Notes under the pieces: model-generated | The model's database searches: none | What the model saw: only the letters and a program-made list of their open reading frames with translations | What the model was told of the DNA's origin: nothing | Position numbers and translations under genes: made by a program | Assembly (NCBI GenBank): GCA_964468545.1 | Contig: CAYXTT010000002.1 | Span: forward strand, 1-32,359 | From: Candidatus Woesearchaeota archaeon | GTDB lineage: Archaea > Nanobdellota > Nanobdellia > Pacearchaeales > GW2011-AR1 | Reading direction: 5' to 3' | DNA length: 32,359 nt | Shown: positions 899 to 32,359 of the stretch, piece after piece | Layout of the letters: the number at the start of each line of letters is the position of its first letter | Position numbering within the stretch: position 1 is the first letter of the stretch

Positions 899-3274
899 AT
901 GAACTTCAAAGACATAAAAAACTGGAGCCCAGAAATAGAAAACCAAATAACATCTAATTGGAAAAACAAAGAACTCTTCGCCTTCAACCCAAAAACAAAA
1001 AAGAAAATCTACTCAATCGACACACCACCTCCCTACGTCAACACACCAATCCACATGGGTCACGCCGTCACATACTGCTTCATGGATTTCTTCGCCCGAT
1101 ACCGACGAATGAAAGGATTCGAAGTTCTTTTCCCACTCGGTCTCGACCGAAACGGACTCCCAATCGAAATGGCAACCGAAAAAAAATTCAAAACATCACC
1201 ATTCAAAGTCGGCAGAAAAAAATTCATGGAATTATGCGAGCAACTCCTAAGCGAAGCCTCAGCCGAATCAATCGACTCATTCGCAAAACTCGGAATTTCA
1301 TTCTCATCCTACAAAGACAACGGAAAAATCGGGGCAATCTACAACACCGACTCCCCAGAATACCGAACATTAACCCAAACAACATTCGTCGAACTCTTCA
1401 AAAAAGGACTAATCTATGAAGACACAAGAATTAATAATTGGGACCCAAAACTCCAAACAACAATCGCCGACTCCGAAATCGAATACGAAGAAATCCCATC
1501 CACATTCAACAATATAAAATGGAAAGTCAAAGAAACGGACGAAGAAATAATGATCGGCACGACAAGACCAGAATTAATCGCAACCTGCGGGATGGTAATC
1601 TTCAACCCAGACGACAAAAGATACAAAAACCTCGACGGCAAAACAGCGATTTCTCCAATCTTTAACGAAGAAATTCTAATCAGGGCGCACCCACTCGCAC
1701 AAATTGACAAAGGCACAGGGTTAGCAATGATGTGCTCAGCAGGCGACTTGTCAGACATTCAATTTTTCCGCGAGATGAATTTAACCCCACGAATCGCAAT
1801 CAACCAAGACGGGCGAATGAACGAAAAAGCCGGAATTCTCAATGGACTAAAAGTGAAAGAAGCACGAGAAAAAATAATAGAACTAATTAAAGAAAAAAAC
1901 CTATTAGTAAAACAGGAAAAAATAACTCACCGAACTCCAATCTCCGAACGCTCGAAAGCCGAAATCGAATTCATCGAAATGCCGGAATTTTATCTAAAAC
2001 AATTAAACATTAAAAAAGAAATAAAAGCAATGGCAAACAAAATAAATTTCTACCCAAAAACTTCAAAAAAAATCCTCGACGATTGGATAGATTCGATATC
2101 AATCGATTGGCCAATTTCCAGACGTCGATATTACGCGACACCAATACCTTTATGGTATTCAGAAAATTTAATCGCAATAGCACCAGAAAAAACTTACACA
2201 GAACCATGGAAACAAGACCCACCAAAAGAATCCGAAGTAATAGATGCCAAAACAAAAAAAATATTAGGAATAGTTACAAACTTTCCCAAAAATAAATGGA
2301 TAGGTGAAACAAGAGTTCTCGACACTTGGTTCGATTCATCAATATCAGAACTTAACATGCTCAAATACAAATCCGACGACACATTCTTCGAAAAATCATA
2401 TCCAGCGACGCTGAGACCACAAGGAAAGGAAATCGTTCGAACCTGGCTTTACTACACAATTCTCCGTGGCTTCCTCGAAACAGACAAACCGTGCTTCAAA
2501 GATGTCTGGATTCATCAGCATATTCTCGACGGCAATGGACGAAAAATGTCAAAATCTTTGGGCAACGTGATAGACCCACAACAAATTCTAAAAGAAGATG
2601 GAGCCGAAGCCCTAAGATTATGGGCAGCAACCGAAGGCGACTTATCAAAAGGAGATTTTGTTTGCTCAAGAGAGAAAATAAAAGCCGAAAATAAATCCCT
2701 AAACAAATTATTAAACATTTCAAAATTCGTGATGCTATTCGACAAGCCAAAAACGAAACCAGCATTAACAGCGACGGACAAATTATTCATCGACCACGTC
2801 GAAAATTTAACAGAAGAAATCGACAAGTCCTACGAAAAATACGACTTCAACAATCCAGCGCAACAACTAAGAAATTTTCTCTGGAACACATTCGCATCAA
2901 ACTATATAGAACTCGTAAAAAACCGCGCCTACAACGAAAACAAAAGCTTCACAGCCGACGAATCAGCCTCGGCAAAATACACGCTTCATTTCATTCTCGA
3001 ACGACTCCTAACCCTCCTCTGCCCAATCATACCACAAATCACGGCGCTAATCGCAAAAGAAAAAAACATCGACCTTCTAAAATCCAAATGGCCAGAAATA
3101 AAACCAACAACTAATAACCAACAACTAATAACCAAATTAATAAATTTCAATAGCCAAATCTGGAAAACAAAAAAAGAAAAAAACATCTCTCTTCGAAACC
3201 CAATAGACGGAATCAAAATCCCAAAAGAACTAATCTCATTCGAAAAAGACTTAAAAGCCTGCCATAATATTTAA
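899..3274 (+). CDS. valS: Valyl-tRNA synthetase (class I aaRS)
   Basis: IDTPPPYVNTPIHMGHA (HIGH-type), GLDRNGLPIE, DTWFDSS and KMSKSLGN. The 791-aa length and N-terminal signature fit the archaeal ValRS type rather than LeuRS or IleRS. Confidence 0.8.
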   Translation: MNFKDIKNWSPEIENQITSNWKNKELFAFNPKTKKKIYSIDTPPPYVNTPIHMGHAVTYCFMDFFARYRRMKGFEVLFPLGLDRNGLPIEMATEKKFKTSPFKVGRKKFMELCEQLLSEASAESIDSFAKLGISFSSYKDNGKIGAIYNTDSPEYRTLTQTTFVELFKKGLIYEDTRINNWDPKLQTTIADSEIEYEEIPSTFNNIKWKVKETDEEIMIGTTRPELIATCGMVIFNPDDKRYKNLDGKTAISPIFNEEILIRAHPLAQIDKGTGLAMMCSAGDLSDIQFFREMNLTPRIAINQDGRMNEKAGILNGLKVKEAREKIIELIKEKNLLVKQEKITHRTPISERSKAEIEFIEMPEFYLKQLNIKKEIKAMANKINFYPKTSKKILDDWIDSISIDWPISRRRYYATPIPLWYSENLIAIAPEKTYTEPWKQDPPKESEVIDAKTKKILGIVTNFPKNKWIGETRVLDTWFDSSISELNMLKYKSDDTFFEKSYPATLRPQGKEIVRTWLYYTILRGFLETDKPCFKDVWIHQHILDGNGRKMSKSLGNVIDPQQILKEDGAEALRLWAATEGDLSKGDFVCSREKIKAENKSLNKLLNISKFVMLFDKPKTKPALTATDKLFIDHVENLTEEIDKSYEKYDFNNPAQQLRNFLWNTFASNYIELVKNRAYNENKSFTADESASAKYTLHFILERLLTLLCPIIPQITALIAKEKNIDLLKSKWPEIKPTTNNQQLITKLINFNSQIWKTKKEKNISLRNPIDGIKIPKELISFEKDLKACHNI

Positions 3275-3328: not shown

Positions 3329-4042
3329 ATGACAGAACTAGAAGTACACATCAAACCAATAGGAGAACTAGGTGTAACTCAAGCAGACTCATTTATATAC
3401 CAAAGAGTAAAAGATTTTCTACTCGGAAGAATGGGAGGAAGAAATTCGGCAGGGTACAAGACAATTATGAACAGCGGATTCGATATACAAAACGCCACAG
3501 GCTCAAGTTTACCATTTATAATAGCGGCAACAGAACTACTGGAAGAAACAAATGTTGCAACGATATTATCACTTGAAGATATAATAAAAATAATCACTCA
3601 CGGAAAAGCCAATGGCAAAAATCACTTCAAAGGAATATATGTCGATACAAACGAAGCAATACTTTATTTAAACGACAACTCCTCATTATCACTTAATTTA
3701 GCAGAGATAGCAAGAAATCAAAATAATACACCTTACGACGCAGAAAACCCAGCAAGATTTACCGGATTAAGAGTAGACAAAGCCGACAACAAAGAAGGAT
3801 ATAGGCTAATAGAAACATCAAAAACACAAATAATCACAGATCCGAGATTCTCTTATTCAAACAATGAGCAAGAAATAGATTTTAATGGAACCCCCATTAA
3901 AGTTTTCACAAAAAAAACTGGCTCGTCGAGGCTTTACGCGTACGAGGACGGGCTGTACGCCGGGGACGGCGTTCCCGCGGATTCGAGCGGCGTTGGTCGC
4001 GTGGGGTTGGTTCACGCCGAAGGCGTCGGTTCGAAAAATTAG
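3329..4042 (+). CDS. DGR variable (target) protein 1, VR at the extreme C-terminus
   Basis: 237-aa ORF with no obvious signal peptide. The last ~40 codons (GSSRLYAYEDGLYAGDGVPADSSGVGRVGLV...) are encoded by a GC-rich island repeated near the RT. Paralogous to CDS 31321..32160 (GSSLPFIIAA vs GSNLPFNVLM; G-x-SR-[LV]-Y). Confidence 0.75.
   Translation: MTELEVHIKPIGELGVTQADSFIYQRVKDFLLGRMGGRNSAGYKTIMNSGFDIQNATGSSLPFIIAATELLEETNVATILSLEDIIKIITHGKANGKNHFKGIYVDTNEAILYLNDNSSLSLNLAEIARNQNNTPYDAENPARFTGLRVDKADNKEGYRLIETSKTQIITDPRFSYSNNEQEIDFNGTPIKVFTKKTGSSRLYAYEDGLYAGDGVPADSSGVGRVGLVHAEGVGSKN
3922..4004 (+). repeat. DGR variable repeat VR1
   Basis: Aligns without gaps to 4235-4317. By hand count, 64 of 82 positions are identical over 3923-4004. 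Confidence 0.8.
4014..4026 (+). other. GC-rich hairpin just 3' of VR1 (candidate DGR target-recognition hairpin)
   Basis: ACGCC-gaa-GGCGT, starting 10 nt after the last TR-homologous base and still inside the CDS. Confidence 0.45.
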
Positions 4043-4100
4043 ATTAATATATATTTTAGAATATAATAATAACTAAAAGTCCAAAACTCTTCAAAAGATT

Positions 4101-4117
4101 CCTAGCTTGGAGCTAGG
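4101..4117 (+). other. Conserved stem-loop downstream of target gene 1
   Basis: CCTAGCT-tgg-AGCTAGG. The counterpart in cassette 2 (32185-32204, CTAACC-ttggaact-GGTTAG) keeps the ATTC...TTGGA.CT...TAGGC context but has different stem bases. Confidence 0.55.
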
Positions 4118-4234
4118 CCACACGCCTCTTTATTAGAACTCTTGAATGAGTCAGTAAAATTCAATGGCGACAACAAGTAATTGAAAATTATGAATCTTGA
4201 AGCCATGGTGGCAATTGGTAAAGAGACTATCACT

Positions 4235-4317
4235 ATCGTCGGGGCTTTACGCGGGCGAGTTCGGGCTTGTCGCCGGGTGCGGCGTTCCCGCGAATTCGAA
4301 CGACAATGGTCAAATGG
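4235..4317 (+). repeat. DGR template repeat TR1 (RT-proximal copy)
   Basis: Non-coding: it has no start codon in the VR-equivalent frame, which closes with TAG at 4320. Codons AAT, AAC, GAC, AAT, CAA and ATG at 4293-4316 correspond to VR1 GAT, AGC, GGC, GTT, CGC and GTG. All 8 mismatches there are at TR adenines. The repeat ends 16 nt before the RT ATG. Confidence 0.75.
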
Positions 4318-4333: not shown

Positions 4334-5350
4334 ATGAAAACTCACAAGAACATCTACTATAAAATCTACAAATGGGAAAACCTTCTTCTCGCCTTCTTGA
4401 AGGCGAGAAGAAGAAAATCAAAAAGAAAAGACGTAAAAGAATTCGAAGAAAACCTGATAGAAAACCTACAAGACTTACAACTCGAGCTAATGGACTCAAA
4501 CATACAAACCAAGACCACTCAAAACATTTATTCTACGAGATCCAAAAACCCGTAAAATATCCAAATCACATTTCAGGGACAGAATAATTCACCACACCCT
4601 TTGTAACATAATCGAACCAATCTTCGACAAAATCTTTATTTATGATAATTGTGCAGGAAGAAAAAACAAAGGAACATCATTCGCATTAAGAAGATTTAAG
4701 AAATTTCAAATTAAAACAACGAAGAATCTAACTTCAAGTAGTTATTGTCTAAAAGCCGATATAAAACATTACTTTGAAGAAGTCAGTCATGAAATTTTAA
4801 TTAACATTATTAAAAGAAAAATAAAAGACAAAATTGCAATACAACTAATAGTAAAGATATTAAAAAATTACCACAACAAAGAAAATGGTATGCCACTAGG
4901 AAGCTTAACAAGTCAACTCTTCACAAGTATTTATCTCAATAAACTAGATTATTTTGTTAAACATCAATTAAAAGAAAAGTACTATATAAGATACGTCGAC
5001 GATTTCCTCATATTAAATTGCTCAAGATTTAAGTTAGCATTCCTAAAAATAAAATAAAAAAATTTCTAAAAAACAATTTAAAATTAGAACTTCACAAAAG
5101 CAAATCAAAAATTATATCATTATCAAAAGTAGTAGACTTCGTAGGATTCAGAAACTACTACCACTTTAAGTTACTAAGACAAAGAAGTATAAGGGGTATG
5201 AAAAGAAAAATACAACTATTCCACAACAATCACATTCCTACAAGCGAAATCTCAGAAATATTTCAAGGATGGCAAGCACATGCAGAAATTGCCAACACAT
5301 ATAATCTAAGAGAGTGCCTAACCCAAACTTTAAAACTACCCCTTCTCTAA
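4334..5350 (+). CDS. DGR reverse transcriptase whose reading frame changes twice (possible pseudogene, assembly indels or recoding)
   Basis: Three collinear pieces. The first runs from 4334 to about 4499 in frame 2 (MKTHKNIYYKIYKWENLLLAFLKARRRKSKRKDVKEFEENLIENLQDLQLEL...). The second covers 4500-5054 in frame 0 (YKPRPLKTFILRDPKTRKISKSHFRDRIIHHTL...GMPLGSLTSQLFTSIYLNKLDYF...YIRYVDDFLIL). The third runs from about 5054-5057 to 5350, back in frame 2 (KKFLKNNLKLELHKSKSKII...VDFVGFRNYY...GWQAHAEIANTYNLR). It has an LGxxxSQ motif 4 and a YVDD catalytic motif. Confidence 0.85.
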
Positions 5351-11221: not shown

Positions 11222-11330
11222 CAACCCTCCAGCGAAGCTGAGCCATCCATCAGCAAAGCTGATGAACCATCCTTTGACAAAGTCAAAGAGCCATCCAATC
11301 GCAAAGCGATTGAGCCATCCAAGTAGCTAC
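11222..11330. repeat. Tandem stem-loop array, 24-nt period, conserved spacer GAGCCATCC; its last palindrome overlaps the MCM stop codon
   Basis: CAGC-gaa-GCTG 11230-11240; ATCAGC-aaa-GCTGAT 11249-11263; TTTGAC-aaa-GTCAAA 11273-11287; AATCGC-aaa-GCGATT 11297-11311; palindrome GTAGCTAC 11323-11330. Spacers are agccatcc, gaaccatcc and gagccatcc x2. Confidence 0.7.
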
Positions 11331-14340: not shown

Positions 14341-17300
14341 ATGAAAAAGAGGGCAATAGTATTTACAATATTTTTATCTTCTCTAATAATACTTACCTAT
14401 TTCATTTCAGCAGATTTCACCGACGACGGAACATCAGTGCAGAATGTCACAGAATGCGGAATATTAAATACTTCTTACGCAACCTATACCCTCAACCAAT
14501 CAATGGGCTCGGGAGCAGACGGCGACTGTCTCCTAATTGCCAACGACAGCATCATCCTTGATTGCGCCGGCTTCAACATCACATATGGAAACGCAACAGG
14601 CGGGGCCGGAATCTACGTTTTTAACGAATCAGGAGAAAACGGATTCAATAACATAACAATCCAAAACTGCATCTTAATTCAAAATATAACCGGAGACGGA
14701 GATGCAGGAATTCAAATTGGAGCAAACTCAACAAACATAACACTCTACAACAACACAATCACCACACTCGGTTCAGACAGCAACGGAATCCACTTCGAAG
14801 CGAACGCCACAAACACAAACATAACCTCCAACAACATAAACATATCTGGAACCGAAGTCCACGGAATTTCATTCGAAAGCAATTCGGTCAACGCAAACAT
14901 AACCTCCAACAACATAACAACTTCAGGTATAGAATCTCACGGAATCTTTTTAGCCGACGGAAGCAATAACGTAAACGCAACTCTCAATATCATAACAACC
15001 TCTGGAGTGAATTCCTCAGGAATTAAAATTGGAGATTCTTCAATTAATGCAAGTGTAAATTTCAATGACATAACAACCTCCGGCTCAGGATTAGAGACCT
15101 GTGGAATCTATTTAGCAGAATCAGGAACCAACGCAAACATCACATCAAACACAGTCAACACATCTGGCGAAGACGCATCAGGAATTAAAATGGGCGACGA
15201 ATTATCAGGATTAGTTTATAATAACACAATTACAACTTCTGGAAATTGGAGTTTATCGAATGCAATGGGTGGAATCTGGTTAGAATCAGACACCGCCGGA
15301 ATAAACGTCAGCACAAACACAATCACAATATCTGGATATCATACTGCAGGAATCTGGGCATGGACTTGTGATAATCATTCTATCGAAAACAACATCATAA
15401 CAGCAACAGGAGAAGCGGACGGAGGAATTGTTTTATTAGACACTCAAGGAACAAACATCACATCCAACACAATCAACATCACAGGAGATTATGGCGACGG
15501 AATCTATTCCTTTAATTCGGAAAATTCCCTACTTTTCTACAACAACGTCATAACAACATCCGGAACAGAAGCTTATGGATTCAACCTCAACCAAACTTCC
15601 AACTCAAACTTCTCATCAAACAACATCACAACATCCGGAACATCAGCCTATGGAATGTTCTTCAACCAATCACACAATAACACCCTCGCAAACAACCGAA
15701 TCACAACCGGCTCATCAACCGCCTATCTCCTATACTTCACAACATCCGGAAACCAATCAATCTACGACAACATCTTCAATACATCAACAACCGGCTCCGG
15801 CATATTCATAAATAGCAGTAATCTAAACTACTTTAACACATCAGGTGCCCCATTCACAAATATAATCGGAAAAGGCTACTATGGCGGAAATTTCTGGACA
15901 AACGCAAACAGTAACGGCTATTCCGACTACTGCACAAACATCAACGACAATTACTATTGCGACTCACCTTATCGCGTCGTGTCTGGCGTCGACAGTTACG
16001 ATTATCTCCCACTCACAAACTATCATACCAACATCTCTGTTTGCGCAGCACTAAGCGTCAAAAAACGTTACACCCTAAATCAAAGTTTATCATCAAACGG
16101 AACTTGCTTTAACATCACGACAAACGGAGTTCAACTCGACCTCGCAGAACACATAATAACAGGAAACACAACCGGCTACGGAGTCAACATCACCGCCCAC
16201 AACGACACGACAATCCTAAACGGTTCAATCTCAAATTTCTCGGTCGGAATCTACGCAACATCCACCACAAACACAAACATAACTCTAACAACAATATCAA
16301 GCACGGAAAGTAATTCAAGCGCAATAACATTATCCGACGCTGACAACTCAACAATCAATTCTAACACAATCACGACCTCAGGAAACTTGTCAGAAGGAAT
16401 CTACGCAACTTCTTCTTCTTACTGTAATCTAACAAACAACAATATAACAACAACTGGTATCGGAACAACCAACTCTGGCAATGGAAGCCCAATAAATATT
16501 CTAAACTCATCAAACTATTTTCTAATCTACAACAACAGAATAAACACCACTAACGCAAACGTCGAGGGTATATACCTATCAAACGATTCCTACGGGAACT
16601 TATCCAGTAACACAATTAACACCTACGGGAACAAGTCTCACGGATTATATTTAACAACAACATCAAATAATAACAGCATAATCTCAAACATAATCAACAC
16701 GCACTACACCGGCGATATAAATCTTTATTCATTCTACGCAGGAGGAAGCTCAACAGGAAATAATATTTCATCCAACAACATTTCATCTCTGGCGAACCAA
16801 TCATTCGGTATTTACCTATCAGGACAAACAAACAACACATTCGTTTACGGGAATCGCATAACTTGCCAAGGGTACCTCGCAATCAGCCTCACGATTCTAG
16901 ATACTACCAATGCCACTACCGGACTAATAATCAGAAACAACAACATTTTAGCAAACCACTCATCACTTGGAATTGCAATCGCCACAGCTGGTTCGGTAAA
17001 CGCACTTTTCTACAACAACATTTTAAATTCAACACATGGCTCATACTTAGGAACATCTTTCAATAACTTTTATTCTGAAGACAACCTCACAAATCAATGG
17101 AACACTTCAAAAACAGCGTCGACAAACATAATCGGAAGAAGCTACATCGGCGGAAATTATTGGACAACTCCAAATGGAACCGGCTACTCCGACTATTGCA
17201 CAAACACAGACAGCGATTACATTTGCGACACCGCCTACACAATAACGGCAAATAACATCGACCGCTATCCATTAACAAACCATTTAAACACAACTACAAC

Positions 17301-24937: not shown

Positions 24938-25261
24938 ATGGAAATCAACGTAACCGACATAACTTTCAAAAAAGAAGTCATTGAAAAATCAAAAACAATT
25001 CCAGTCCTCGTCGACTTCTGGGCAGAATGGTGCGGTCCGTGCATAATATTAAAACCAATTCTTGAAAAACTCGCAAAAGAATTCAACGGCAAACTCATTC
25101 TCGCAAAAGCCGAAACAGACAAAAATCAAGAACACGCAAGCGAATACGAAGTTATGTCAATCCCATCTGTAAAACTTTTTAAAAACGGAAAAGTCGTCGA
25201 CGAATTTATCGGCGCCCAACCCGAAGCCACAATCAAGCAATGGCTTAACCAAAAACTCTAA
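24938..25261 (+). CDS. trxA: Thioredoxin
   Basis: VLVDFWAEWCGPC active site. 107 aa. Confidence 0.9.
   Translation: MEINVTDITFKKEVIEKSKTIPVLVDFWAEWCGPCIILKPILEKLAKEFNGKLILAKAETDKNQEHASEYEVMSIPSVKLFKNGKVVDEFIGAQPEATIKQWLNQKL
25203..25240 (+). repeat. Left copy of a 38-nt perfect direct repeat (inside the trx 3' end)
   Basis: aatttatcggcgcccaacccgaagccacaatcaagcaa is identical to 25836-25873. Confidence 0.9.
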
Positions 25262-25609
25262 TCACTTTATAAAAAAATCAATCTTGTCTTTCACTTGCCT
25301 GTAAAAATCTTTTTTTACCGTCGCCAAATTTTTGATAATAATTCTTTCATCAATAGTAAAAATCCTATGAGGTTTAATCCAACTCTTAAACGGTAACTTT
25401 CCCTTAGCAAAACTTCCTCTCGAAATCAGAACTCCATTCTTAGGACTATTGGAAGTAACCAAACAACAAATTTTATCCTCACCCTTCAAGTTAGAATTAG
25501 AAACAATCATCGCGGGTCTTCTTTTCACGCCAGCCAAATCAGAATAAGGAAACGGAATCAAAACAATATCCCCTTGCTCAAACATTATTCCATTCCTCAT
25601 CGACTTCAT
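25262..25609 (-). CDS. mazF: PemK/MazF-family toxin
   Basis: GDIVLIPFPYSDLAGVKRRPAMIVS...CCLVTS....G.LPFKSWIKPHRIFTIDERII. The likely start is at MFEQGD (25585), which overlaps the antitoxin stop by 8 nt. Confidence 0.7.
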   Translation of the reverse strand: MKSMRNGIMFEQGDIVLIPFPYSDLAGVKRRPAMIVSNSNLKGEDKICCLVTSNSPKNGVLISRGSFAKGKLPFKSWIKPHRIFTIDERIIIKNLATVKKDFYRQVKDKIDFFIK

Positions 25610-25808
25610 TATCCCAGTCTTTTTTCAAAACATCCTCAGACGCCAACATCGCAAGAATCCCCTCGCTGTTTTTATCACCCTTAATCAAATTGAGTTCCGC
25701 CACCTTCTGACGAATCGCCTTTCTAATAAACTCGCTCCATCTAATTTCAGAATACCTTTTCATTAAACCATAAGTTTCATCTTCGATAGACAACGTAATA
25801 TTAGTCAT
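25578..25808 (-). CDS. Ribbon-helix-helix (CopG-like) antitoxin
   Basis: ITLSIEDETYGLMKR....WSEFIRKAIRQKV, with an acidic tail. Lies upstream of the toxin gene and overlaps it. Confidence 0.6.
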   Translation of the reverse strand: MTNITLSIEDETYGLMKRYSEIRWSEFIRKAIRQKVAELNLIKGDKNSEGILAMLASEDVLKKDWDNEVDEEWNNV

Positions 25809-25835
25809 AACAAATTAAGTGGCATCACTTATTTA

Positions 25836-25873
25836 AATTTATCGGCGCCCAACCCGAAGCCACAATCAAGCAA
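25836..25873 (+). repeat. Right copy of the 38-nt direct repeat (orphan trx 3' end, would encode FIGAQPEATIKQQLN-stop)
   Basis: Identical to 25203-25240. The offset is 633 nt. Confidence 0.9.
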
Positions 25874-25894
25874 CAGCTCAACTAAAAATTATAG

Positions 25895-26212
25895 TTACAA
25901 AAATTCTCTACGATTTGAATATTCCAGTAACTCCGCTTTCGCCATTCTTAATCTATATTTATCTGTTTCAGATAATTCTCCTCCCATCGCTATCATTTCC
26001 AAAGCGAAATCATAATTTCCAAGATATTTAAATTTCTTATCATAAACTTTCAAGACGACATATCTCTCAATCATTTTTTCAATACACGATTCAGAAGGAC
26101 GAGACAATCTTCCATTACACGCTTTAATGACATATTCGATATCTCCAACTACAACTCCCATCATCGCCCTAAGACGCCCTTCATTTTTTGCCGTTTCAAC
26201 AATGTCTTCCAT
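25895..26212 (-). CDS. Hypothetical protein
   Basis: 105-aa ORF with no recognisable motif. Confidence 0.4.
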   Translation of the reverse strand: MEDIVETAKNEGRLRAMMGVVVGDIEYVIKACNGRLSRPSESCIEKMIERYVVLKVYDKKFKYLGNYDFALEMIAMGGELSETDKYRLRMAKAELLEYSNRREFL

Positions 26213-29863: not shown

Positions 29864-31261
29864 ATGAAAAAATTTTATGTAACGACGCCAATTTATTACC
29901 CAAACGACATCCCACACATCGGACACGCATACACGACAATAGCAGCAGACATCCTCGCACGATGGCACAAACTCAAAGGCGAAGAAGTATTTTTCTTAAC
30001 TGGAACCGACGACCACGGAAAAAAAATCGCCGAAGCCGCAAAAAAAACAGGCAAGTCGCCAAAGGAATTCACCGACGACCTAATCCCAAAATTCAAAGAC
30101 GCATGGAAAAAACTAAACATTAACTACGATAGATTCATAAGAACAACTGACCCCGACCACGAAAAAATCGTCCAGGAAATCTTGCAAAAAGTTTATGACA
30201 ATGGCGACATTTACAAAGGAGAATACGAAGGATTTTATTGCACCGGTTGCGAAGCATACTACACCGAAAAAGACCTCGACAACGGCAACTGCCCAATTCA
30301 CAAAACAAAAATAGAAAAACTAAAAGAAGAAACCTACTTCTTCAAACTTTCAAAATATCAAGACAAACTTCTAGACTTCTATAAACGAAACCCGAACTTC
30401 ATTTTACCAAAACACCGAAGACAAGAAATCATCAACAGAGTAAAAGAAGGATTAAAAGATTTGAGCATTTCAAGAAACTCATTTAACTGGGGAATAAAAC
30501 TTCCATTTGACAAATTGCATATAACATACGTTTGGTTCGACGCACTTTTCAATTATTATTCCGCAACAAGACAAAAAGGAAAAGAAAAATTCTGGCCCGC
30601 CGATATTAATCTAATTGGCAAGGACATACTCTGGTTCCACACGGTATACTGGCCCGCATTTTTGATGTCAGCCGGAATCAAACCGCCAAAGTCGGTATAC
30701 GCACACGGATGGTGGACATTTAATAAAGAAAAAATTTCAAAATCACGCGGAAAAGTAATCAATGTCGACGAATTAATAAAAATTGCCGGAGTCGATTCGG
30801 CAAGATATTTTCTCTTCAGAGAATCATCATTCGGCGAAGACGGAGACTTCTCCGAAACAGCATTGATAAATCGCCACAACAACGAACTCGCAAACAAGCT
30901 CGGCAATCTCATCTCACGGACTTCAGCTCTCGTCGAGAAATACGGGATTGAAGAAAATCCAAACACATTATTAAAAAAACCAATCCTAAAAAAAATAGAA
31001 AACTACATGGACAAATTTGAACTCGACAAAGCTCTAAGTGAAATTTTCGCGTTAATAGATATTTGCAACGAATTTATTCAAACAAAAAAACCTTGGGAAA
31101 CCCACGACAAAAAAGTCCTCTATCAATTAGTCGACTCAATCCGCCAAATCGCAAAACTCCTATCGCCATTCATTCCCGAGTCCGCAGAAAAAATTTCAAA
31201 GATTTACAAAACCGACAAAATTATAAAATCCCCAATACTATTTAATAAAATAATTCAGTAG
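29864..31261 (+). CDS. metG: Methionyl-tRNA synthetase (short form)
   Basis: PIYYPNDIPHIGHAYT (HIGH), Zn knuckle CTGCEAYY...CPIH, and KISKSRG (KMSKS). Confidence 0.9.
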   Translation: MKKFYVTTPIYYPNDIPHIGHAYTTIAADILARWHKLKGEEVFFLTGTDDHGKKIAEAAKKTGKSPKEFTDDLIPKFKDAWKKLNINYDRFIRTTDPDHEKIVQEILQKVYDNGDIYKGEYEGFYCTGCEAYYTEKDLDNGNCPIHKTKIEKLKEETYFFKLSKYQDKLLDFYKRNPNFILPKHRRQEIINRVKEGLKDLSISRNSFNWGIKLPFDKLHITYVWFDALFNYYSATRQKGKEKFWPADINLIGKDILWFHTVYWPAFLMSAGIKPPKSVYAHGWWTFNKEKISKSRGKVINVDELIKIAGVDSARYFLFRESSFGEDGDFSETALINRHNNELANKLGNLISRTSALVEKYGIEENPNTLLKKPILKKIENYMDKFELDKALSEIFALIDICNEFIQTKKPWETHDKKVLYQLVDSIRQIAKLLSPFIPESAEKISKIYKTDKIIKSPILFNKIIQ

Positions 31262-31320: not shown

Positions 31321-32160
31321 ATGATAAAATTAGGAACAGCGCCAATAATTCAAGTGCCAGAACAAGAATTTGGTTTCTATAGTCGTCCGGATTTAGCAGG
31401 CAAAACTTTTTTAGAAGCATTTGAAAAAGAATTGAGACAATACAATCCAGAAACTCTAAAAAAAGCATTAAACGGAGAATTTTACTTCGACAGCGACGGA
31501 ACATTAAGAGGTTCAAATTTACCTTTTAATGTTTTAATGAATCATAAAAATCTTTTCCCCGAAGACGAACATCCTTTATCAATCGCAGAATTCGGTCAAG
31601 CATTTAACAAAAACCCAGAAGCTTCCAAAGAAATATACGCAGACACCGGGATTATAGCAAGGACACCAAACGATTATTTTTCAGAAAATATAATTAAACA
31701 AATAAAAGCAAGAGGAAAAACACCAACTCCAGAAGAACCAATAGTAATATCCAACACAGACCTAATTCCAATACAAAATAAAGAGTCCCGTTGCGGATTT
31801 GTTTACAAAATAAAAGACAGAGACGGCGAAGAATTAATAGTAGCCCCAGCATATGGAACAGCAGAAACCATAACAAAATTCACAATCTACGACGAAAGAG
31901 GAATTCCTATCCCATCCGAAAGAGGAGATAAACAAATCTGGAAAGGAGATTCTGGCGTGTCGAGAGTTTATTCTAGCTACGGCCAGGTCGTGGGCTCGGG
32001 CGACGAGCGCCTGGCGAGTTCAGGCGGCGGCGGCAGGGTAGTGGTGGGGAAGGCCAATGTTCCGCAAAATATTGTTGAAATAGAAAAGTTAGTTCAGCAA
32101 GAAGAAAAAAGAATAAAAATGGCAAAAAAAGATTTAGAAAAAAGAGTAGCAAAGTTATAA
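31321..32160 (+). CDS. DGR variable (target) protein 2, with the VR near the C-terminus followed by a coiled-coil tail
   Basis: 279-aa paralog of CDS 3329..4042. The GC-rich segment GVSRVYSSYGQVVGSGDERLASSGGGGRVVVG is repeated downstream at 32305 onward. Confidence 0.7.
   Translation: MIKLGTAPIIQVPEQEFGFYSRPDLAGKTFLEAFEKELRQYNPETLKKALNGEFYFDSDGTLRGSNLPFNVLMNHKNLFPEDEHPLSIAEFGQAFNKNPEASKEIYADTGIIARTPNDYFSENIIKQIKARGKTPTPEEPIVISNTDLIPIQNKESRCGFVYKIKDRDGEELIVAPAYGTAETITKFTIYDERGIPIPSERGDKQIWKGDSGVSRVYSSYGQVVGSGDERLASSGGGGRVVVGKANVPQNIVEIEKLVQQEEKRIKMAKKDLEKRVAKL
31954..32049 (+). repeat. DGR variable repeat VR2 (3' limit inferred from the GC-rich island)
   Basis: 31954-32008 aligns without gaps to 32305-32359, with 48 of 55 positions identical by hand count. 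The rest of the TR lies beyond the window. Confidence 0.7.
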
Positions 32161-32184
32161 AAGCCTAAATTTATTCAAAAAATT

Positions 32185-32204
32185 CTAACCTTGGAACTGG
32201 TTAG
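32185..32204 (+). other. Conserved stem-loop downstream of target gene 2
   Basis: CTAACC-ttggaact-GGTTAG, homologous in position and context to 4101-4117. Confidence 0.5.
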
Positions 32205-32304
32205 GCTACATGTTGATTAATTTATAATTCAATCACAACAATTAGTAGTTTGCGCGAAAATTGAAGTGATGGTGATTTACTTTCAATTAATCAACTATAT
32301 AGTC

Positions 32305-32359
32305 GGCGTGTCGAGAGTTTTTTCTGCCTACGACCAGGTCGCGGACTCGGGCAACGAGC
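32305..32359 (+). repeat. DGR template repeat TR2 (partial, truncated by the window edge)
   Basis: GAC, GAC and AAC codons here correspond to GGC, GGC and GAC in VR2 (A to G at 32333, 32345 and 32353). It is preceded by an AT-rich leader homologous to the one upstream of TR1. Confidence 0.6.

Follow-up and report, generated by a model that had tools for sequence, protein, structure and literature searches.

Introduction

In the diversity-generating retroelement (DGR) of BPP-1, the template repeat (TR) stays unchanged, the initiation of mutagenic homing (IMH) sequence versus its counterpart IMH* decides which repeat is the recipient, and information is transferred from the IMH at the 3' end, according to Guo et al. 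(2011, PMC3240598). For the DGRs of Nanoarchaeota (DUSEL4), Paul et al. (2015, PMC4372165) describe an IMH of the sequence TGGGGT and a hairpin with a GRA triloop, located inside the target gene. Here we report on a 32,359-nt stretch of DNA from Candidatus Woesearchaeota archaeon (GenBank assembly GCA_964468545.1, contig CAYXTT010000002.1, positions 1 to 32,359 of the forward strand; hereafter the window), an A-rich contig that carries two DGR cassettes, and on the loss of adenines from the template of the first cassette, TR1.

Like the DUSEL4 elements, the window has a DPANN host, the order target - TR - reverse transcriptase (RT), an orphan target protein and several cassettes per genome, including fragmentary ones. 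It is unlike them in the agreement between the TR and the variable repeat (VR): pairs were accepted there with at most 2 non-A mismatches per 100 bp, so that cassette 1, with 10 such mismatches over 82 bp, would be filtered out. Erosion of a TR is not described in PMC4372165. With BPP-1 the window shares adenine-specific mutagenesis by a DGR RT, and BPP-1 also offers an experimental precedent for mutagenesis of a TR that is recognised as a target. In work attributed to Doulatov et al. in 2004, the TR of BPP-1 was reportedly made a recipient by swapping IMH* for IMH. Unlike in BPP-1, the erosion in the window is natural, lies in the 5' part and is not anchored at the 3' end; the 3' end of TR1 (an IMH*-like TGGCCT and a hairpin) is unchanged compared with relatives that have intact TRs.

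Degenerate DGR loci are also known. As in the window, complete and degenerate loci occur in one genome in Thiohalocapsa PB-PSB1, where RT or TR are pseudogenised or missing (Dore et al. 2024, PMC10907252). Decay there proceeds via transposons and miniature inverted-repeat transposable elements, whereas we observed frameshifts and adenine-specific template erosion; compared with PB-PSB1, no rescue in trans was visible for cassette 1, whose VR is invariant. Furthermore, a preprint (bioRxiv 10.64898/2026.02.18.706561) predicts that, in a stable environment, the loss of adenines from its TR makes a DGR inoperative. Non-A-to-N mismatches, degenerate loci and the theoretical prediction of template adenine loss are already known. 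A natural, adenine-specific and polarised TR erosion with comparative data was not found in the DGR literature searched, and this absence is not proof.

Results

Mismatches between the repeats of cassette 1

Cassette 1 lies between valS and aRF1 and has the order target gene with the VR inside it, 193-nt spacer, TR and RT. VR1 (3923-4004) and TR1 (4236-4317) were aligned without gaps in the frame of the target gene (offset +313; repeat family D6), which gave 18 mismatches. Eight of these were located at TR adenines, all in the 3' part (4293, 4300, 4303, 4305, 4306, 4312, 4313 and 4314), and ten at non-A sites of the TR, all in the 5' part (4242, 4254, 4255, 4260, 4261, 4268, 4269, 4270, 4278 and 4279). 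The non-A sites occupy positions 1 and 2 of four NNC codons (TR GGC/TTC/GTC/TGC vs VR TAC/GAC/TAC/GAC), one third codon position (CTT vs CTG) and one first position (GGG vs AGG, 4242), and all bases between the ten sites are identical in the two copies. The alignment thus confirmed the positions, the codon assignment and the identical intervening bases in an earlier interpretation made from the letters alone (the sequence-only reading), which had proposed adenine mutagenesis of the template itself and an origin of both copies from AAC and CTA codons.

When the variable positions were masked with N, the TR/VR scaffold matched twice in the window and never in 100 shuffles, indicating that the repeat pair is not due to chance. 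A relaxed pattern found nothing extra in two further contigs of this strain, L011 and L012 (~11 kb of flanks). Likewise, no additional copy carrying AAC, which the sequence-only reading thought worth looking for, was present in the window with these flanks or in the metagenome-assembled genome (MAG) of the sister lineage. A pattern specific to the window lineage had 0 matches in JGI metagenome contigs, and a family-wide pattern matched only the sister and L094 lineages and none of the viral contigs.

The pair was compared with 73 TR/VR pairs adjoining RTs of the same clade in species-representative genomes (loci L013-L089). In this survey 52.9% of template adenines were mutated (47% retained) and non-A mismatches affected 0.97% of sites; every pair had at most 3 interior non-A mismatches, and the TRs carried 19-30 adenines. 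TR1, with 12 adenines and 10 non-A mismatches, was an extreme outlier, and cassette 2, with 4 non-A mismatches, was the next. The bases found in the VRs at mutated adenines were 543 G, 229 T and 19 C (69%, 29% and 2%, respectively). Interior non-A mismatches of the survey (n = 31) were not enriched beside mutated adenines, where mismatch-extension errors would be sought (5/31 vs a 17.5% background), and the VR carried A in only 5/31, against the prediction of general TR erosion; from these sequences we do not claim such erosion for the clade. T<->G pairs made up 14 of the 31. As adenine mutagenesis in the clade yields mainly G and T, some of these pairs may be traces of former template adenines.

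Adenine loss in TR1

Syntenic cassettes found via homologue clusters provided three lineages for comparison with cassette 1: a sister lineage (L001-L010 and L032), L110 and L094. The sister lineage shows ~83% nucleotide identity and has an intact 339-aa RT, and its TR/VR pair is fully canonical (13 mismatches at A and 0 at non-A sites). The RT start of L110 lies at the contig end, and four distinct VR sequences were recorded for its cluster. At codon 3 the TRs of the relatives read AGG, where the window TR has GGG; at codon 7 they read AAC/AAC/GAC (window GGC), at codon 12 AAC/GAT/GAC (GTC) and at codon 15 AAC/AGT/AAC (TGC). At codon 9 the sister and L110 have GAC, L094 has GGC and the window has TTC. 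Codons 14, 16 and 17 are AGG, GAC and AAT in the relatives; in the window, TR and VR both have GGG, GGC and GTT, respectively. Codon 11 is CTG in TR and VR of every relative vs CTT in the window TR.

The alignment with the TRs of sister genomes settled the polarity: the A-rich codons are ancestral. The central proposal of the sequence-only reading, a template that was itself adenine-mutagenised, is therefore supported by the sister, L110 and L094 TRs. The codons it had named as ancestors were borne out in part. A-rich codons do occur in the relatives at 7, 12 and 15, but at codon 9 an AAC is hinted at only by a TAC in one VR allele (L109/L112). A CTA ancestor of codon 11 had to be abandoned, and 4268 is a plain G>T change in the TR.

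Compared with the sister TR, the window TR changed at 12 of 24 adenines, as against 4 of the 58 bases that are not A (p = 2.9e-5, Fisher test). The losses were confined to the 5' part, with 12 of 14 adenines lost in 4242-4285 vs 0 of 10 in 4293-4314 (p = 6.7e-5). Within the 44-nt eroded tract, 3 of 30 non-A bases changed, and the spacer next to TR1 was only 7% diverged from the sister. The lost adenines were replaced in eight cases by G, in four by T and in none by C, and four adjacent double changes were observed (AA>GG, GT, TG and GT). Adenine-specific loss in the 5' part, together with its polarity and its spectrum, can thus be regarded as established within this alignment.

Four of the lost adenines are also missing from the VR (4275, 4282, 4284 and 4285, in codons 14, 16 and 17), and eight were lost in the TR only (4242, 4254, 4255, 4261, 4269, 4270, 4278 and 4279). 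At these eight sites the VR keeps A at 5, which is close to the 47% retention in the clade. The VR states AGG, TAC, GAC, CTG, TAC and GAC can be derived from the ancestral TR through changes at A only; the differing VR1 states cannot be derived from the present TR1. Because the relatives give the polarity, the change is specific to A, the spectrum matches and the VR is derivable only from the ancestral TR, the template was changed at adenines, with the signature of the RT itself. Taken together, these comparisons solidly support the fact of erosion, namely that TR1 lost adenines through adenine-specific change in the template. Furthermore, the shared codons 14 and 16 flank codon 15, whose losses are in the TR only, and one tract therefore cannot explain all losses. 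The four shared and eight TR-only losses indicate at least two erosion episodes in cassette 1.

Changes of another kind were seen in the L110 lineage. Its TR has C>T at the third positions of codons 8, 12 and 15 and a G at position 1 of codon 12, whereas its VR still has the C of codon 15 and the A of codon 12, and the VR of L111, another strain, has the new TR state. These states suggest that VRs lag behind an evolving TR in the L110 lineage too.

Inactivation of RT1 and decay in the family

Three-frame translation and alignment to the 339-aa sister RT showed that RT1 has gained one nucleotide near 4492 (+1) and lost one from an A-run near 5044 (-1). These frameshifts are compensating and lie 552 nt apart: the N- and C-terminal parts are in one frame and the catalytic core with YVDD is in another. 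Both recur in L011 and L100-L104, six further assemblies from at least five samples, which with the window makes seven independent assemblies, and VR1, TR1 and RT1 are identical base for base in these seven. An assembly artefact or homopolymer sequencing error, considered for the RT1 frameshifts and the TR1 tract, was rejected because the seven assemblies agree without gaps and the neighbouring A-rich genes are also intact. RT1 shows 81% nucleotide identity to the sister RT and has kept all motifs, suggesting that its inactivation is recent. VR1 is invariant across the seven assemblies although single nucleotide polymorphisms occur nearby. Since the RT is frameshifted in all seven and the VR is frozen, cassette 1 is a dead DGR with a frozen VR.

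Decay was also observed in related lineages. L094 (also L095 and L097) has a large internal RT deletion, by which MKSHKN is fused to the C-terminal quarter (L094:3400-3700). Most differences between the TR of L094 and those of the sister and L110 lie at non-A bases, three of them being C>T, and the 3' end of the L094 TR is replaced or diverged (…GGAATAGCC…) and resembles the TR end of the cassette 2 type. In L109, L111 and L112, DUF4389 and radA come immediately after the target gene, which has no adjoining TR or RT. Decay of cassette 1 is thus recurrent in the family. The VR of L111 differs from that of L109 and L112, which have one VR in common, pointing to a remote template or frozen old alleles. 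In JGI 3300028191 (L002 and L100) the window lineage with the dead cassette 1 co-occurs with the sister lineage with an intact one. The sister VR was identical in 10 of 10 contigs examined despite the intact RT.

Adenine loss and activity in cassette 2

Cassette 2 lies downstream of metS and is cut by the window end; locus L012, from the same strain, was used to complete it. For the ancestral comparison we used the TRs of L013, whose RT is 85% identical to RT2, and of L014, the second cassette of the sister MAG. TR2 lost 8 of 24 adenines common to L013 and L014 vs 2 of 47 shared non-A positions (p = 0.0019), and all of the adenine losses lie within codons 6-19, that is, they are 5'-biased. Three are TR-only (TAT>TTT and AAC>GCC) and five are common to VR2. 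The sequence-only reading had quoted the cassette 2 codons correctly (TR2 TTT/GCC/GCG vs VR2 TAT/AGC/GTG) and had seen the same pattern in them; this holds for TTT and GCC, which derive from TAY and AAC, but not for codon 13, where the VR2 GTG vs the GCG of all TRs reflects a C>T in VR2 itself rather than a former GAG.

A second VR2 allele was found in L105 and L106, which belong to the same strain but other samples (10 differences in 6.2 kb, TR2 identical). The two alleles differ at 7 sites, all in the 5' part (L105:4500-4539, corresponding to window 31963-32002). The L105-type VR2 reads TTT and GCC like the eroded TR2 and has new changes at TR2 adenines (codons 4, 10, 11 and 17); the 3' half of VR2, with many mutated adenine sites, is identical in both alleles. 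An intact RT2 and two VR2 alleles show that cassette 2 is live. Because the L105-type VR2 carries the eroded TR2 bases, the window-type VR2 predates the TR2 erosion and the L105-type postdates it. Cassette 2 appears to be an earlier, still active stage of the process seen in cassette 1. The alleles further suggest that rewriting of VR2 hit only its 5' part, unless selection or recombination gave the same picture; such a 5'-only change is unlike the canonical 3'-anchored transfer of DGRs.

In L107:2330-2559 and L108:2332-2540, the 5' part of target gene 2 (window ~31900-31960) is joined to TR2 and the start of RT2, and VR2 and the spacer are skipped. The two come from different samples and assemblers, and the junction reflects either a genuine deletion through recombination of VR and TR or an assembly chimera caused by the repeats.

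Assignment to the nanoarchaeal DGR group

The motif [LIV]GxxxSQ is diagnostic of DGR RTs. In the window system LGSLTSQ and LGNLTSQ, as well as YVDD, were read directly, and the RVT_1 matches had E-values of 3.5e-20 (RT1, frame-corrected) and 5.9e-17 (RT2). The clade to which both RTs belong comprises 80 DGR-type RT loci, and TR/VR pairs accompany most of them. VR1 is situated at the 3' end of its target, in codons 199-226 of a 237-codon open reading frame (ORF), with the variable sites at codon positions 1 and 2. Only 8 of the 18 differences in cassette 1 (44%) are at TR adenines, short of the bias expected of a DGR; the bias is present in 4293-4314 taken alone and in the reconstructed ancestral TR, and fully so in the sister cassette. 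Similarly, the TRs are not invariant across lineages, given the losses of 12/24 and 8/24 adenines in the two cassettes, and both TR1 and TR2 are invariant across samples of this strain. Signs of activity are seen in cassette 2 and not in cassette 1. No ORF of a size suitable for an accessory protein was found between target, TR and RT, and the next gene is aRF1; no Avd profile search was made. As in the nanoarchaeal subtype, TGGGGT and an inverted repeat with a GRA triloop lie in the target gene, with a minimum free energy (MFE) fold that is not significant. The element is accordingly assigned, from its sequence features, to the nanoarchaeal DGR group, with cassette 1 as a decayed member and not a non-member.

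Features of the window

The coordinates of the features are listed in Table 1.

Table 1 Positions of the DGR features in the window and, for RT2, in locus L012.
Feature	Position	Strand	Basis or remark
Target gene 1	3329..4042	+	ORF; 237-aa orphan protein; 3' end contains the VR
VR1	3923..4004	+	Aligns to TR1 at offset +313; codons 199-226 of target 1
TGGGGT motif, VR-side target-recognition element	4002-4007	+	Direct reading; inside target gene 1
Inverted repeat ACGCC-GAA-GGCGT, VR side	4014-4026	+	Direct reading; inside target gene 1
Conserved non-coding spacer, target 1 to TR1	4043..4235	+	Comparison with the sister lineage
Spacer hairpin CCTAGCT-TGG-AGCTAGG	4101-4117	+	Fold computation
TR1	4236..4317	+	Repeat alignment; directly upstream of the RT, as throughout the clade
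Eroded tract of TR1	4242..4285	+	Comparison with sister, L110 and L094 TRs
Intact part of TR1	4293..4314	+	10/10 ancestral adenines present; 8 mutated in VR (classic A-to-N)
Hairpin CCTAG-CCAA-CTAGG at the TR1 3' end, just before the RT start codon	4318..4331	+	Fold, z = -2.0
RT1 pseudogene	4334..5350	+	RVT_1, YVDD, LGSLTSQ; two frameshifts
Target gene 2	31321..32160	+	ORF; 279-aa orphan protein
VR2	31954..32041	+	7 sites vary between samples (L105/L106 vs L012/window), all in the 5' part
TR2	32305..32359	+	Cut by the window end; runs in L012 to 11072
RT2, intact, 339 aa	L012:11097-12116		Downstream of TR2

RT1 starts 17 nt after the end of TR1, and the hairpin between them is identical in the sister and L110 lineages. 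Downstream of VR1 an inverted repeat is visible, but its MFE fold is no better than those of shuffles. The spacer of cassette 1 has 92.8% identity to the sister vs about 81-83% for the flanking genes, and the spacer of cassette 2 (32161-32304) contains an analogous hairpin, CTAACC-TTGGAAC-TGGTTAG. The conserved spacer between target and TR is probably part of the DGR RNA.

Both cassettes lie directly downstream of an aminoacyl-tRNA synthetase gene on the same strand with a gap of ~55-60 nt: valS (899-3274) precedes target gene 1 and metS (29864-31261) precedes target gene 2. The position next to valS is kept in the sister and L094 lineages. Target 1 had no Pfam, NCBIfam or PDB sequence match, and only four homologue clusters were found for it among 5.8 billion proteins (that of the window and three others). 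AlphaFold2 on the 4-sequence alignment gave a pLDDT of 32 and no usable model of the target fold. The closest relatives of the window are MAGs labelled Woesearchaeota, Pacearchaeota or Nanoarchaeota. Three repeat regions are unrelated to the DGR: a long A/C-rich stretch at 14810-16382 with ~78-nt periodic repeats (families D1, D2 and D7), 24-nt tandem repeats at 11240-11320, and a 63-nt segment duplicated at 25203 and 25836 (25203-25898).

Discussion

The eight TR-only losses were not selected via the protein, because the VR lacks them, and an adenine-specific mutational input is therefore needed. The DGR RT is the only adenine-specific input known to act on this sequence, which implies that mutagenised sequence returned to the template. 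We therefore favour the interpretation that adenine-mutagenised sequence made by the element's own RT re-entered the template, with cDNA as the most likely vehicle, and put its probability at roughly 0.6. Of the three mechanisms that the sequence-only reading had proposed, homing of cDNA into the TR fits best.

In this process, mutagenised cDNA would integrate into TR DNA, instead of or besides the VR, in a manner driven by homology and independent of the IMH, and each event would replace template adenines irreversibly, like a ratchet. In cassette 1, adenines would first have been lost at codons 14, 16 and 17. Normal homing would then have copied the new bases into the VR and diversified the codons that were still A-rich. 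A second erosion, at codons 3, 7, 9, 12 and 15, would never have been copied to the VR, and no later homing would have crossed the eroded region; the RT1 frameshifts would have been acquired afterwards or meanwhile. The 5' half of VR1 would thus preserve the residues Y, D, Y and D written from the older A-rich template. We infer both the direct entry of cDNA into the TR and the origin of the 5' bias, for which the free 3' end of the cDNA, equivalent to the 5' part of the TR, would be used in the homology-driven integration. With direct entry of cDNA, each episode takes a single event, and the history of both cassettes can be clonal; the 5' bias of TR erosion also agrees with the two VR2 alleles, which differ in the 5' part only.

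Several points weigh against this interpretation. The TR-only changes G4260T and G4268T are not at adenines but beside lost ones, and site 4260 is ambiguous, being G in the TRs although one VR allele of L109/L112 reads TAC there. The ancestral reconstruction of cassette 1 draws on only four lineages, and the passage from cDNA to TR was reached by parsimony. Canonical self-homing would erode the 3' part first, the opposite of what was observed, so that a non-canonical, homology-only integration has to be assumed. Furthermore, codon 13 of VR2 is GTG in both alleles though TR2 has GCG, which would call for patchy 5' rewriting or recombinant alleles, and the appearance of 5'-only rewriting could also result from strong selection acting on the VR2 3' half.

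A competing, though rather unlikely, explanation is gene conversion at the DNA level, in which a VR tract was copied into the TR 313 bp away to give a chimera with no direct role of cDNA. The two copies are direct repeats, and adenine specificity and spectrum would be inherited from the VR; moreover, the four shared losses of cassette 1 and the five of cassette 2 are explained equally by either copying direction, and the L107/L108 junction, if real, shows that VR and TR recombine in the population. However, conversion leaves the TR equal to the VR, whereas the present VR differs at 10 non-A sites and could not be regenerated from the eroded TR. A VR allele imported by inter-strain recombination is then needed, in both cassettes, and only with this addition does the chimera proposed by the sequence-only reading fit. 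In addition, identical blocks between the repeats are at most ~13 nt long, and the TR-only codon 15 between two shared codons does not fit one tract.

Ordinary point mutation of the TR, either as neutral drift after the death of RT1 or under second-order selection for adenine loss once the VR is well adapted, appears improbable. Progressive loss of TR adenines under stable conditions is indeed what the bioRxiv model (10.64898/2026.02.18.706561) predicts, RT1 is dead and VR1 is frozen, and the shared losses, where TR equals VR, would fit the freezing of an adapted residue. TRs also do take ordinary substitutions, as seen in the third-position C>T changes of L110 and the many changes of L094. 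However, that model works through spontaneous point mutation and selection via the VR and predicts neither TR-only losses nor an RT-like spectrum, and since the VR does not carry the eight TR-only losses, selection through the protein could not favour them. Drift, for its part, does not account for the change of 12/14 adenines vs 3/30 non-A bases in the tract and 0/10 adenines next door, nor for the four adjacent double changes or the RT-like spectrum. The decayed TR of L094 shows mostly non-A changes instead, and cassette 2 erodes likewise beside an intact and active RT.

It is very improbable that the mismatches arose on the VR side, by RT infidelity at non-A bases or cDNA integration errors, with an unchanged TR, although surveys of DGRs usually explain non-A-to-N differences in this way. 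Wu et al. (2018, PMC5758913) reported TR/VR pairs with many non-A differences, as here: non-A-to-N mismatches in 23% of DGRs, up to 11 per target and commoner in those of the candidate phyla radiation (CPR) type, which are credited there to RT infidelity, integration errors or independent mutation. One real case was found in the window, codon 13 of VR2. In TR1, by contrast, 9 of the 10 sites, at which the window TR stands apart from the three related TRs, represent template change at or beside former adenines; position 1 of codon 12 is G in the window TR, as in L094 and L110. The VR states follow from the ancestral TR by adenine changes alone, and the clade rate of 0.97% per site predicts ~0.6 non-A mismatches in TR1, where 10 were observed.

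Least probable of all is a master TR elsewhere in the genome, with 4236-4317 as a remnant or secondary VR-like copy: VR alleles of the L109, L111 and L112 targets do differ between samples although no TR or RT adjoins them, and the search of this genome spanned only ~43 kb, but no third copy, as the sequence-only reading had envisaged, occurred in the window, L011, L012 (~11 kb of flanks), the sister MAG or the L094 MAG, the copy sits at the standard TR position of the clade behind a conserved spacer, and the 3' third of TR1 is a perfect adenine template for the VR, including a lineage-specific GGT.

The return of mutagenised cDNA to the template can be extended to a general proposal, which we consider tentative and less probable than the interpretation of the present locus. 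DGR templates may be unprotected from their own cDNA: in a 5'-biased, homology-only route that exists besides IMH-directed homing, the free 3' end of the cDNA would invade any homologous duplex and rewrite the 5' part of the VR, leaving its 3' part as it was, and sometimes the TR, giving every DGR a built-in ratchet on its lifetime. If this is true, it could account for some of the non-A-to-N mismatches known from roughly a quarter of DGRs and for the many fragmentary DGRs in DPANN and CPR genomes.

The model of DGR function rests on an unchanged template that enables indefinitely repeated diversification. In the window, a natural template lost half of its adenines with the mutational signature of its own element, in a cassette that has since died, and a similar loss is seen in a live cassette of the same genome. 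Pipelines that require a strong adenine bias discard such cassettes (44% adenine mismatches here); as a result, decaying DGRs are under-counted and non-A mismatches misread as low RT fidelity. If self-directed integration of cDNA is true, DGRs would have an intrinsic ageing mechanism, VR sequences would record earlier states of their templates, and the theory of template adenine loss would gain a concrete, testable example.

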